Virus record (IMG/VR): IMGVR_UViG_2778261450_000004
DNA from: a virus
Lineage: Duplodnaviria; Heunggongvirae; Uroviricota; Caudoviricetes
DNA: 40,477 nucleotides
Strand: one strand, 5' to 3'
This document shows positions 29,757 through 32,495 of this stretch, in pieces (the stretch's first letter is position 1; every line of letters starts with the position of its first letter). The notes beneath the pieces were generated by a model that saw only the letters and a program-made list of their open reading frames with translations, searched no databases and had not been told where the DNA came from. Made by a program: the position numbers and the translations under genes.

Positions 29757-30503
29757 TTACTTCTCAATTCCTGGCTGACCAACATTCGGGCGCCAGCTCT
29801 CCCAGTTAAAATTCACCCATCGCCCGCCGTTCATGGTCATCCGATCCATAATCCTCTCGCCGAGCAATGTTTTCATGGCCTCATAGTTCAGGTTTGTCAG
29901 CATCCCCACGCTGCGGATCGACGCTGTCCGGCGATCAACAATCTGGTGCAGTACCACCTGCTCGTTTTTTGTCTCGCGCTGAATGCCAATTTCATCAAGA
30001 ACCAGCAGATCCACTTCGCACAGTTCCCGCAAAAATTTTTCGCCTGATTGCCCGTCGTCATAGCTGGCGTGTAGAGCACTCATAACATCAGCCACGGTAA
30101 CCACAATCACTGTCTGACCGTTTTTCAGCAGGCGATTCCCGATAGCCGCCGCCAGATGGTTTTTTCCGGTACCAGGTTTTCCGCTAAACGCAAAATTTGT
30201 ACACCCGACCATCAGTTCATCGGCGATGGATTTCGCCTGGCTCAACGCGTATCGCTGGCCGTCGTTCTGCACCTGGTAATTCGAAAACGAGCATTTGCGG
30301 TGCAACGGCTGGATGCCGGAGCGATTCAGAATTTTTTCCACCCGCAACTGACGATTCTGGCGATTGATCTCCTCGCAACGTTTCTGGCCTTCTGCAAGTT
30401 GCCACTCGCGCCACTCCGCCACCGTCCTGAATGGCGCGGTTACATGTGGCGGGGCCAGTCTGCGGATACGTTCCAGAACGCCGCCTGTCGCAATATTTTT
30501 CAT
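29757..30503 (-). CDS. DnaC/IstB-like replication ATPase (helicase loader)
   Basis: Walker A GKPGTGKNHLAAAIG and Walker B-like DLLVLDEIG. Confidence 0.8.
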   Translation of the reverse strand: MKNIATGGVLERIRRLAPPHVTAPFRTVAEWREWQLAEGQKRCEEINRQNRQLRVEKILNRSGIQPLHRKCSFSNYQVQNDGQRYALSQAKSIADELMVGCTNFAFSGKPGTGKNHLAAAIGNRLLKNGQTVIVVTVADVMSALHASYDDGQSGEKFLRELCEVDLLVLDEIGIQRETKNEQVVLHQIVDRRTASIRSVGMLTNLNYEAMKTLLGERIMDRMTMNGGRWVNFNWESWRPNVGQPGIEK

Positions 30504-30509
30504 GGTCAG

Positions 30510-31298
30510 TTACCCCCTGAAGCCTGGCGGGATCGCACTGTCCGGAAACGAGACAGTGTTAACCTGTCGGAGCAACGTCTCAGGCCGAACACTTTTCGGC
30601 GCGAACAAGCCCTGGTATTCATTGGCGATGCTGTGTCGAATCACCTGCTCAGGGGTAAAACCCTGCTGGCGGAATTTTTCCAGTTCCCGTATCGCCCCGT
30701 TAGCGCCCTGCTCCGTTCGAATCGGTTTTCGCAATGCCTGCCTGAACTGGACCCACTCATTCCAGAGTGTTTCTGGCAACCAGTCGGGCAGAGCAATGGC
30801 CTCCGGCTCGAATTGTTTAGACGCTCGTTTTTGCCGAGGGGGATTTAGGGGGAGATCAGTATTTATATCTTCCTCTTCCTCTTCCTCTGGTAACGCTTTT
30901 TGATCCGTTTGTGTAACGCTGGCAGCGTTACCTTTTCGCTTCAGTTCGCGTATTTTTGTAACTCTCTCGTTTGTAACCGCCCGTTTTTTCGAGCTTTTTC
31001 CGTTATGACGCTCAAAGTTTGGTAGTGAAAGCACTCCATCACTTTCGACCAGCCATCCAACCTGAATTAACGCATCAGCAAAACCAGCCATAAAAGTGAT
31101 ACGGTCTATTGCACTTTTTGTAACGCCTCGAGCGTTACACTCTGCGTTACCATCAATCATTTGTTGATCCGCCCATGCCCAGAATCGAATGACCTTCCCT
31201 AATGCGGCATCTGGATCAATATTAAGAATCTCAGCAATCCTGAATATTTCCGGTTTATCCGGCGTAATAACTTCGAGCTTTATCCAGTTTGAAGCCAT
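30510..31298 (-). CDS. Replication initiation protein (YdaU / O-like, putative)
   Basis: ATG at 31298 (MASNWIKLEV...) with an AAGGTGA SD; acidic EEEEEED stretch; directly precedes the DnaC-like gene; contains palindromic repeats. Confidence 0.6.
   Translation of the reverse strand: MASNWIKLEVITPDKPEIFRIAEILNIDPDAALGKVIRFWAWADQQMIDGNAECNARGVTKSAIDRITFMAGFADALIQVGWLVESDGVLSLPNFERHNGKSSKKRAVTNERVTKIRELKRKGNAASVTQTDQKALPEEEEEEDINTDLPLNPPRQKRASKQFEPEAIALPDWLPETLWNEWVQFRQALRKPIRTEQGANGAIRELEKFRQQGFTPEQVIRHSIANEYQGLFAPKSVRPETLLRQVNTVSFPDSAIPPGFRG
30913..30931. repeat. Palindrome GTAACGCT-GGC-AGCGTTAC (copy 1)
   Basis: Read directly from the sequence; lies inside the O-like gene. Confidence 0.8.
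31119..31139. repeat. Palindrome TGTAACGC-CTCGA-GCGTTACA (copy 2)
   Basis: Read directly; inside the O-like gene; an extra GCGTTAC half-site follows at 31144-31150. Confidence 0.8.
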
Positions 31299-31311
31299 AT
31301 TGTTTTCACCT

Positions 31312-31332
31312 TGTAACGCTCGCAGCGTTACA
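31312..31332. repeat. Palindrome TGTAACGCT-CGC-AGCGTTACA (copy 3)
   Basis: Perfect 9-bp arms; sits 14 bp upstream of the O-like start codon, between ydaT and the O-like gene. Confidence 0.8.
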
Positions 31333-31376
31333 TTTAACTGATACCGAACAAAACGCTCCGGCACGATTAATTTCAA

Positions 31377-31799
31377 TCAATGCACTACGACAGAATCGCC
31401 GGATGATCCGCCGCGGCTGAAATGCGCTTTCCGGTAAACGGCCTGGACTGCATCATCATGCGCATCAATTGCCGTATTCAGCGCTTCCTGAGCCGCCAGT
31501 AATGCGCGACGTTCCAGGGTGTCAAAAACGCTGAGGCGGTGTCGCAGTTCGCGCGGAAGAATTGCCAGGATTGCAGGAATCAGCTTCTGGATTTTTTCCC
31601 TTTGCGCCTCTGTTTCACCTTTTAACCAGCGGTGATAGATGTTTTGCTGATTGTTCCAGTCCTTGCCTGGCGCCAGGGCTAATTCACTCTCCCCCTGGCG
31701 CAAATATTCTTCAGTAATTGCGTTGGCAACCCACGCCTGACCTTTTTCGGCAGCCAGAGCTAACAACACTGATTCAATGTGCTCATGCCTGATTTTCAT
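31377..31799 (-). CDS. ydaT: YdaT-like protein
   Basis: 140 aa from MKIRHEHIESVLLALAAEKGQAW...; position after the Cro-like gene matches Rac ydaS-ydaT. Confidence 0.6.
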   Translation of the reverse strand: MKIRHEHIESVLLALAAEKGQAWVANAITEEYLRQGESELALAPGKDWNNQQNIYHRWLKGETEAQREKIQKLIPAILAILPRELRHRLSVFDTLERRALLAAQEALNTAIDAHDDAVQAVYRKAHFSRGGSSGDSVVVH

Positions 31800-32010
31800 G
31801 AATACCCTTACCCGCCCGCTTTGCCTTACGATATTTGTCATAGATATTTGAGTCGTACTGAAGCTCCCCGCCAGATGCCTCTTGCAGACGCATCGCGCGG
31901 CCTTCAGGAACCAGTTCCCCCCATTGAGAAACAGCAGATGGATCAACGCCAGCAGCTTTCGCCACTTTGGCTTTCGTGCCGTAATAATTAATTACGTCTG
32001 ATTTAAACAT
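31783..32010 (-). CDS. Cro/YdaS-like small HTH protein
   Basis: MFKSDVINYYGTKAKVAKAAGVDPSAVSQWG... is HTH-like; ATG at 32010 with a GGAGGTG SD; divergent from the repressor gene. The track start at 32037 is a TTG. Confidence 0.55.
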   Translation of the reverse strand: MFKSDVINYYGTKAKVAKAAGVDPSAVSQWGELVPEGRAMRLQEASGGELQYDSNIYDKYRKAKRAGKGIHENQA

Positions 32011-32020
32011 TGCACCTCCA

Positions 32021-32037
32021 ATATTGAGTTTTCTCAA
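32021..32037. promoter_or_regulatory. Operator: 16-mer ATATTGAGTTTTCTCA containing palindrome TTGAG-TTTT-CTCAA
   Basis: Exact 16-mer repeated at 32557-32572; lies between the divergent Cro-like and repressor genes; further CTCAA half-sites at 32047 and 32057. Confidence 0.55.
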
Positions 32038-32066
32038 TGTTAATCACTCAAGGAATCTCAAGTCAA
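32037..32066 (-). promoter_or_regulatory. Putative promoter for the Cro-like gene
   Basis: On the - strand: TTGACT (32061-32066), 18-bp spacer, TAACAT (32037-32042); the operator overlaps the -10/+1 region. Confidence 0.3.
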
Positions 32067-32087
32067 GGGTTATTAAGATATCTAAAT

Positions 32088-32495
32088 ATGAACGAGAAAA
32101 CTTTAGGTCAACGAATTAGAGAAAGACGCAAGCAGGTAGGCTTAAGTCAAAGTGGTTTAAGCAAAGCTGCTGGCGTTTCTGGCTCATCAATTTCATTATG
32201 GGAAAGTGACCATACAGCCCCGCGCGGGCAAAATTTGCATAGACTCGCCGAGGTATTACAATGCTCACCGACCTGGATACTGTTCGGTGATGAGGATAAA
32301 ACTCCGGATGCCCCAGTTTCACTCAATAGCACCTTAGACTTATCGGAAGATGAACTGGAGATGTTGCGACTGTATCGCGCACTTCCAAAATCCGAACAAC
32401 AAGCACAAATCAGTGAACTCAGCGCTCGAGTTGAGAATTTTAATCGCCTATTTACTGAGCTATTAGAAGCTCGCAAGCGTAACAAACATCAATAA
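32088..32495 (+). CDS. XRE-family HTH repressor (CI / RacR-like)
   Basis: MNEKTLGQRIRERRKQVGLSQSGLSKAAGVSGSSISLWESDHTAPRGQNLHRLAEVLQCSPTWILFGDED is a classic XRE HTH. No SD, so possibly leaderless; an alternative upstream ATG is at 32037. Confidence 0.7.
   Translation: MNEKTLGQRIRERRKQVGLSQSGLSKAAGVSGSSISLWESDHTAPRGQNLHRLAEVLQCSPTWILFGDEDKTPDAPVSLNSTLDLSEDELEMLRLYRALPKSEQQAQISELSARVENFNRLFTELLEARKRNKHQ

Follow-up and report, generated by a model that had tools for sequence, protein, structure and literature searches.

The window analysed here is the whole of IMG/VR virus record IMGVR_UViG_2778261450_000004, a 40,477-nucleotide stretch of DNA from a virus of the Caudoviricetes, and the element under study is a set of palindromes (dyads) located in and just upstream of a gene for a replication initiator. 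The closest formal family of the 262-residue initiator is phrog_2509, whose "replication initiation protein" profile matches residues 1-262 to profile positions 1-277 (E = 1.6e-89), and its start at the ATG at 31298 is backed by alignment with homologues and by the annotation of near-identical genes. A DnaC/IstB-type helicase-loader gene, ydaV, follows directly, and DUF1627 and DUF977 genes come after ydaV. On the other side lie a YdaT/cII-like gene, a DicC/P22-Cro-type gene and a DicA-type repressor gene, the last being the only one of the relevant genes that is not encoded on the minus strand. Near-identical DNA occurs in Rac-like Escherichia coli prophages, where it adjoins recET, kilR, sieB and racC, and in the record "Escherichia phage Rac" (MN652886). 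The coordinates of the genes and sites are collected in Table 1.

Table 1. Genes and sequence elements of the replication region, in coordinates of the window
Feature	Position	Strand	Description
Upstream dyad	31312..31332	no strand	TGTAACGC-TCGCA-GCGTTACA; in the 78-bp ydaT-initiator spacer, beside the Shine-Dalgarno sequence
Middle dyad	31119..31139	no strand	TGTAACGC-CTCGA-GCGTTACA; +160 from the ATG
Distal dyad	30912..30932	no strand	Core GTAACGC-TGGCA-GCGTTAC; +367, start of the disordered linker
Extra half-site	31144..31150	- (coding)	GTAACGC; direct repeat 12 nt 5' of the left arm of the middle dyad
Terminal half-site	30890..30896	+	Coding strand GCGTTAC; separated from the purine tract by 1 nt
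Purine-only tract	30868-30888	-	AGAGGAAGAGGAAGAGGAAGA = (GAGGAA)3; encodes EEEEEE
AT patch	30860-30867	-	TATAAATA; after the purine tract
Initiator gene	30510..31298	-	262 aa; phrog_2509, structure model, BLASTP against K-12 YdaU
ydaV	29757..30503	-	DnaC/IstB-type helicase loader (PF01695, E = 1.4e-19); directly downstream of the initiator gene
YdaT/cII-like gene	31377-31802	-	
DicC/P22-Cro-type gene	31783-32010	-	
DicA-type repressor gene	32088-32495	+	

The first-pass annotation of this DNA had reported three near-identical palindromes spaced about 200 bp apart, two within the initiator gene and one upstream of it, together with extra half-sites, and all of this was borne out by reading of the sequence and by pattern searches. 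On the plus strand, TGTAACGC-N5-GCGTTACA occurs three times, with start-to-start distances of 207 and 193 bp. The middle and upstream copies are perfect; the distal copy has one mismatch, its perfect 7+5+7 core being 30913-30931. The upstream copy ends 13-14 bp before the ATG, and heptamers of the GTAACGC type accompany the other two as half-sites. A search of the window for further copies, which had been proposed as a check, resulted in three full dyads, as against 0.11 expected from shuffled sequences (none of 100 shuffles reached three), and 15 GTAACGC heptamers, as against 3.2 expected and a highest shuffle value of 8; eight of the 15 fall within 30890-31331. The distal dyad and the terminal half-site together span codons 123-136 of the initiator gene, and the only short-range repetition is that of half-sites at a distance of 12 or 16 nt. 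Between the distal and middle dyads are two copies of TTTGTAAC 15 bp apart (30955-30962 and 30970-30977), which read GGTTACAAA and AGTTACAAA on the coding strand; their conservation in relatives is only partial, and they may represent degenerate half-sites.

The label "O/YdaU-like" that the protein had been given applies to its C-terminal half. With both hhalign and BLASTP, only residues 139-262 align with K-12 YdaU (124 aa, 78% identity), while the N-terminal domain belongs to another family that has no Pfam match; a Pfam search with the full 262 residues gave no family at E <= 0.01. The match to phrog_678, "replication initiation O-like," is limited to aa 85-237. From its N-terminus, the protein is laid out as a winged-helix-like domain (approximately residues 10-100), then a basic helix (103-122), then a linker that is disordered and acidic, and lastly the C-terminal domain (139-262), for which YdaV is the presumed partner. 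In the structure model, the N-terminal domain has a predicted local distance difference test (pLDDT) score of 84-97 over approximately residues 10-100 and consists of two helices, a loop, two further helices and a beta-hairpin, followed by the basic helix and the disordered linker. Fold searches with this domain returned weak neighbors, mostly winged-helix DNA-binding domains, so that the similarity is at the level of the fold only, and a search of solved-structure sequences with the family profile gave no match at E <= 1. The middle dyad corresponds in the protein to loop C54-T60, which joins helices 2 and 3 and lies in a stretch (residues 49-60) of low model confidence where relatives tolerate insertions, and the distal dyad encodes the beginning of the disordered linker. 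The sites are thus placed where the protein tolerates a constraint acting on the DNA.

Relatives were drawn from E. coli genomes and from IMG/VR (individual loci are given L numbers below), the 80 IMG/VR loci representing 67 distinct N-terminal sequences with 50-100% protein identity. A GTAACGC-N5-GCGTTAC dyad with at most one or two mismatches is located near +148/+160 from the ATG in every one, and a second is located at +357 to +424 in all but one disrupted copy (L038). Conservation was scored in a 510-nt alignment of 19 representatives (less than 88% pairwise and 63% mean nucleotide identity). The four intragenic dyad arms are the four best-conserved 7-mers of this alignment (0.99, 0.985, 0.947 and 0.94), the two highest scores belonging to the arms of the middle dyad, and third-codon positions score 0.95-1.0 within the arms versus 0.60 overall. 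The 5-nt spacers vary freely, and the direct half-site 12 nt before the middle dyad is present in 11 of the 19 representative lineages. One clade (L055-L064/L073/L080-85) uses a different frame for the distal dyad: GTA ACG CTG GCT GCG TTA C encodes V-T-L-A-A-L, whereas in the window GGT AAC GCT GCC AGC GTT ACA encodes G-N-A-A-S-V-T. This switch of frame, in which the DNA is kept and the peptide changed, is the strongest single point for selection at the DNA level. The upstream copy is non-coding. Judged by these alignments, the dyads are under selection as DNA.

Several individual loci depart from the common pattern. The initiator gene is apparently frameshifted after approximately codon 105 in L039, L041, L043 and L066, all of which have perfect dyads at +160 and at +366 to +368; in L038 the gene is disrupted near codon 123 and the distal dyad is lost. 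These defects may reflect recent decay or sequencing errors. In L042 and L081, a 15-codon insertion in the loop of the middle dyad (about +150 to +250) itself holds extra GTAACGC half-sites, and in L067 and phage CBW1004C (L216) at least three direct half-sites with a 12-nt period precede the distal dyad.

Across the compared loci, the sole constant partner of the dyads is the N-terminal domain of the initiator. The upstream gene varies (YdaT in the window, unrelated small open reading frames elsewhere), the C-terminal domain of the initiator comes in several types among loci with identical dyads, and the next gene encodes a DnaC-like protein (window and L042), a lambda-P-like protein (L004, L005, L053, L073 and L082), a DnaB-like protein (L081), or no loader. 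The extreme C-terminal tail of the initiator seems to go with the loader type: the tail "...PD(S/N)xIP(P/D)GF(R/T)G" is found in the window, in K-12 YdaU and in L042, all three with a DnaC-type loader, but L040, L055 and L085 share it although no loader gene follows there; the tail "...VPHWNSPEGWxxFI" is found in L053 and L073, both with a lambda-P-type loader. The former tail matches the C-terminus of DnaT weakly, below threshold.

More distant homologues of the N-terminal domain were collected by tblastn and fall into subfamilies with different dyads. Subfamily A, with the loop DGNA..VT, has the GTAACGC dyad at about +150 and +370 and includes the window as well as phages CP2 (Xanthomonas), PAN70 (Pseudomonas), QkW1 (Ralstonia) and CBW1004C. 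Subfamily B (MAGDWIKMRADLHTHPKV...) has (T)GTCCGCA-N5-TGCGGAC(A) at +65 and at +341 to +365 and includes epsilon15 (Salmonella), BUCT711 (Klebsiella), phiPSA1 (Pseudomonas), RPZH3 (Ralstonia) and Carin1 (Cobetia), the last with the distal dyad only. Two further types are each represented by a single phage: GTAGACG-N6-CGTCTAC at +153 and +369 in Raharianne (Ralstonia), and TGTCACA-N7-TGTGACA at +357, with half-sites also at +164 and +197, in Vibrio phage 1.211.A. Phages of Ralstonia, of Pseudomonas and of enterobacterial hosts each include more than one subfamily, and the dyad sequence tracks the N-terminal subfamily of the initiator rather than the host genus or the flanking genes. The IMG/VR viral contigs were also scanned with the exact GTAACGC-dyad pattern. 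Among the 120 contigs listed, 103 encode the N-terminal domain, including all 52 of the 52 contigs with at least two dyads, and 166 of 187 dyads are in, or no more than 150 bp from, the gene for this domain. These patterns point to the initiator itself as the protein that quite probably reads the dyads.

The distal cluster has the same build in nearly every member examined, consisting of zero to three direct half-sites with an 11-12-nt period, the dyad, and a last half-site in right-arm orientation that lies 1-2 nt from a purine-only tract. In the window, the coding strand of 30860-30896 reads GCGTTAC-C-AGAGGAAGAGGAAGAGGAAGA-TATAAATA, in which the 21-nt purine-only tract, with about 50% A+T, is joined to an 8-nt AT patch; there is no 40-bp AT-rich block, and the G+C content of 30860-31380 is below that of the flanks (0.33-0.50 versus 0.55-0.70). 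In epsilon15, BUCT711, phiPSA1, RPZH3, Raharianne, CP2, QkW1 and CBW1004C, the N-terminal domains of which are only 31-49% identical to that of the window, the half-site abutting the tract is in the local motif (GCGGAC, GCGACTAC, CGTTACC) and the tract itself is nucleotide-identical (AGAGAAGAGAAGAGAAGAGA..., that is, (AGAGA)4-5). PAN70, Carin1 and the Vibrio phage have a shorter, interrupted tract. The (AGAGA)n tract translates to REEKRREE, and all 24 of its 24 Arg codons are AGA, compared with 30 AGA/AGG among 143 Arg codons elsewhere in the same related genes (G+C 0.52-0.65; Fisher p = 2e-14). In the E. coli clade, the peptide has changed to EEEEEE and the tract is still purine-only and repetitive. 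Its length differs among the near-identical relatives L027, L029-L031, L034 and L037, which encode EEEE, EEEEEE or EEEEEEEE; this looks like repeat slippage and shows that variation in tract length is tolerated. Homology to relatives with other C-terminal domains, and to K-12 YdaU, breaks directly after the tract, which indicates two modules that exchange separately, the N-terminal domain with the sites and the C-terminal domain with the loader. The purine tract and the AT patch (30860-30888) are a candidate element for unwinding or loading. A search of 30400-31500 gave no DnaA box at up to one mismatch, nor is the window enriched in DnaA-box-like matches. A scan also flagged the distal dyad and CTTTTCGCTT on the plus strand as a terminator, which was rejected because the T-run is not kept in relatives.

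The three copies of the dyad are kept to different degrees. The linker dyad of the distal cluster is present in all relatives examined, apart from the disrupted copy, and the middle dyad is universal in subfamily A, its place being taken in subfamily B by the proximal dyad at +65. An upstream dyad at -32 to -44 occurs in many lineages (the window clade, L040, L042, L045, L046, L052, L053, L067 and L075), always where an intergenic spacer exists; where the upstream gene runs up to or over the initiator start there is none, and about half of the lineages lack this copy. The copy is optional, and its placement beside the Shine-Dalgarno sequence suits an accessory role, for example in autoregulation or as a third anchor, and not a role in the core origin. 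In O157 Sakai Sp10 (L003 2982-3003), a perfect palindrome with an 8-bp stem, TACCGAAC-AAAACA-GTTCGGTA, is located just upstream of the upstream dyad, and its equivalent in the window (about 31340-31362) is degenerate.

If the dyads were only operators, through which the initiator or another repressor regulates the replication operon, the origin would be located elsewhere. Inverted repeats do serve as autoregulatory operators of plasmid Rep proteins, and the upstream dyad adjoins the ribosome-binding site. However, the promoter-proximal copy is the dispensable one, while the universal cluster is the one deepest in the gene, abutting the conserved purine tract at the module junction. Moreover, no sigma-70-like promoter was predicted near the upstream dyad or any other dyad, the only promoter-like sites predicted being a pR-like one (32066-32037, minus strand) and another on the opposite strand. 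As it is the promoter-distal cluster that is conserved, regulation alone accounts poorly for the three sites together, and we regard this explanation as improbable. The first-pass annotation had offered autoregulation as an alternative for the whole set; that option may stand for the upstream copy alone.

Since binding to the dyads is deduced from sequence, any sequence-specific protein could in principle be the reader, including a host regulator or one of the YdaT/cII-like, DicC/Cro-like and DicA-like regulators of the phage. A reader of this kind is, on the comparisons made, quite unlikely. Operators for YdaT, DicA or DicC were rejected because many loci with identical dyads lack the genes for these proteins, and because the palindromes of the immunity region are of a different type (TTGAG-N4-CTCAA). 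That the motif might be a common host-regulator site, as the first-pass annotation had allowed, does not hold up either: within one host genus the dyads differ by initiator subfamily, distant genera with the same subfamily share a dyad, and in the listed viral contigs the motif is nearly confined to the initiator gene. This dependence on initiator subfamily rather than host genus rules out that a host regulator is the principal reader, and we know of no E. coli regulator with the consensus GTAACGC-N5-GCGTTAC. The DicA/DicC-type intergenic region of the window contains the palindrome TTGAG-TTTC-CTCAA and repeated CTCAAG motifs (32024-32037 and 32046-32070), which are presumably the immunity operators.

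Selection could also act on the transcript, as each dyad can form a stem of 7-9 bp, the upstream one just 5' of the Shine-Dalgarno sequence, and such hairpins could affect mRNA stability, processing or translation. It is the arm sequence that is kept, however, and not merely the pairing: the rare changes in the arms are one-sided, and the absence of compensatory changes in the 67 distinct relatives argues against selection for an RNA stem. The extra half-sites, which are unpaired, are conserved as well, and the predicted fold of the leader is not unusual (z = -1.4), leaving a hairpin function very unlikely. Least credible of all is that the dyads are chance repetition or a by-product of the peptide N-A-x-x-V-T, which is encoded at both intragenic sites and conserved in homologues, given that synonymous positions in the arms are nearly invariant, the same DNA encodes VTLAAL in the other frame, the third copy lies outside the coding sequence, frameshifted gene copies keep perfect dyads, and other subfamilies have other dyads and other peptides at equivalent places.

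We therefore favor, with moderate confidence, the explanation that the dyads are binding sites of the initiator of this Rac-like E. coli prophage and that together with the purine tract they form a replication origin inside the initiator gene. An origin composed of initiator-binding repeats within the gene had been suggested by the first-pass annotation, and that suggestion gains support from the DNA-level selection, the co-variation with the N-terminal subfamily, the specificity of the motif to the family, and the layout of half-sites and tract in the distal cluster. Upon derepression, read-through from the pR-like promoter would lead to production of the initiator. Initiator dimers would then occupy each GTAACGC-N5-GCGTTAC through their N-terminal winged-helix-like domains, with half-site centers 12 bp apart, and additional protomers would take up the flanking half-sites. 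The distal cluster (30890-30932) would set the initiator against the (GAGGAA)3 tract and AT patch, where the duplex would be distorted or opened, and the C-terminal domain would recruit YdaV, the DnaC-type loader, together with host DnaB. A second anchor, at a distance of about 207 bp, would be the middle dyad, which may loop or wrap the DNA. At the optional upstream dyad, beside the ribosome-binding site, the initiator may damp its own expression, or a looped or wrapped complex may be stabilized.

Several caveats apply to this explanation. That the initiator binds the dyads, that the duplex melts at the tract, that the loader is brought in, that the DNA loops, that the initiator regulates its own expression and that the region acts as an origin are all steps that we infer from the patterns described. 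The sites are widely spaced dyads and not a tandem array such as that of lambda, and the label "O/YdaU-like" suits only the C-terminal half of the protein. The representatives used in the conservation alignment are phylogenetically related, such that its statistics overstate independence, and the p-value for AGA codons does so as well because the genes are related. The co-occurrence of dyads and gene in the viral contigs is partly trivial, as the sites are inside the gene.

A more specific version of the proposed origin is possible but decidedly tentative. It would constitute an undescribed origin design, in which a purine-only tract, (AGAGA)4-5 or (GAGGAA)3, located 1-2 bp from the last half-site takes the place of an AT-rich element in melting or loading, for example through a triplex-prone structure or strand-specific binding by the initiator. 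A second dyad some 200-280 bp away, in the region encoding the DNA-binding domain, would be needed for looping or wrapping, and the peptides REEKRREE/EEEEEE and NA..VT would be mere translations of origin DNA.

In the literature searched, which did not cover papers on oriJ, there was no earlier description of the dyads or of a purine tract in a phage origin. The analysis provides a specific predicted origin and a predicted initiator-recognition code for a Pfam-less initiator family that had no experimental work in the literature searched. This family spans the Rac-like and Sp10-type E. coli prophages, TL-2011b and epsilon15-like phages, and is also found in phages of Xanthomonas, Pseudomonas, Ralstonia, Vibrio and Cobetia. 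The retention of the same DNA in different reading frames suggests that origin DNA can dictate conserved "protein motifs," which is relevant to annotation, to the interpretation of conservation, and to recoding and synthetic-phage work, where synonymous changes in the arms would probably abolish replication.

Among known initiation systems, the primosomal protein DnaT, which has a C-terminal ssDNA-binding domain, resembles the present one in that the C-terminal domain is DnaT-like (PF17948; RefSeq names and the annotation of epsilon15) in many of the relatives that share the N-terminal domain. The C-terminal domain of the initiator in the window, in contrast, matches the DnaT tail only below threshold (16.6 bits, with the cutoff at 201), and to our knowledge DnaT has no sequence-specific origin-binding domain. 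In iteron plasmids, winged-helix initiators such as pPS10 RepA, R6K pi and RK2 TrfA act on repeated sites beside an unwinding element, and autoregulation comes from copies in inverted repeat close to where the rep gene starts. One account (PMC4081077) describes Rep proteins as contacting one strand of the unwinding element as well. The present system shares with these plasmids a putatively winged-helix-like initiator, repeated sites, a candidate unwinding element alongside them, and an inverted repeat near the start of the gene. It differs in that the initiator has no match to Rep_3 or any other Pfam family, the sites are dyads and not direct 17-22-bp iterons, the proposed origin is inside coding sequence, and no promoter overlaps the upstream dyad.

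In phage lambda, the origin sits in the central part of the O gene, with dyad-symmetric iterons beside an AT-rich tract (PMC7466680). As in lambda, lambdoid and Stx-phage origins, the proposed origin is within the initiator gene, between the regions encoding the N-terminal DNA-binding and C-terminal loader-binding domains; the sites have internal dyad symmetry with a compositionally skewed tract on one side; and the N-terminal domain and sites swap as a module apart from the C-terminal domain and loader (for lambda, PMC7466680). In contrast, the N-terminal domain here is not of the O family and has no Pfam Phage_rep_O match, two or three dyads about 200 bp apart with flanking half-sites are found in place of the four to six adjacent 19-bp iterons of lambda, the tract is a purine-only short repeat rather than AT-rich, and one site is upstream of the gene. 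Judged on these features, it would be functionally a lambda-type origin embedded in an initiator gene, but one that belongs neither to the lambda O family nor, in its N-terminal half, to the DUF1376/YdaU family.

The K-12 Rac prophage is of the same type and has the same gene order (repressor, cro-like, ydaT, initiator, ydaV), with the C-terminal 124 residues of its YdaU (DUF1376) 78% identical to those of the window; the N-terminal domain of the window, however, is unrelated to DUF1376, and K-12 has no GTAACGC dyads. In the linker DNA of MG1655 ydaU (+390 to +460 from the ydaU ATG; L002 about 4010-4080), (G)TGTTCAAACA instead occurs three times, twice in direct orientation (+392 and +425) and once inverted (+449), with a further ATGTTCAA at +147. 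These repeats are in the position equivalent to that of the distal dyad in the window, just before the shared C-terminal module. The TGTTCAAACA repeats of ydaU are thus candidate iterons of oriJ, the origin of the Rac prophage in K-12.

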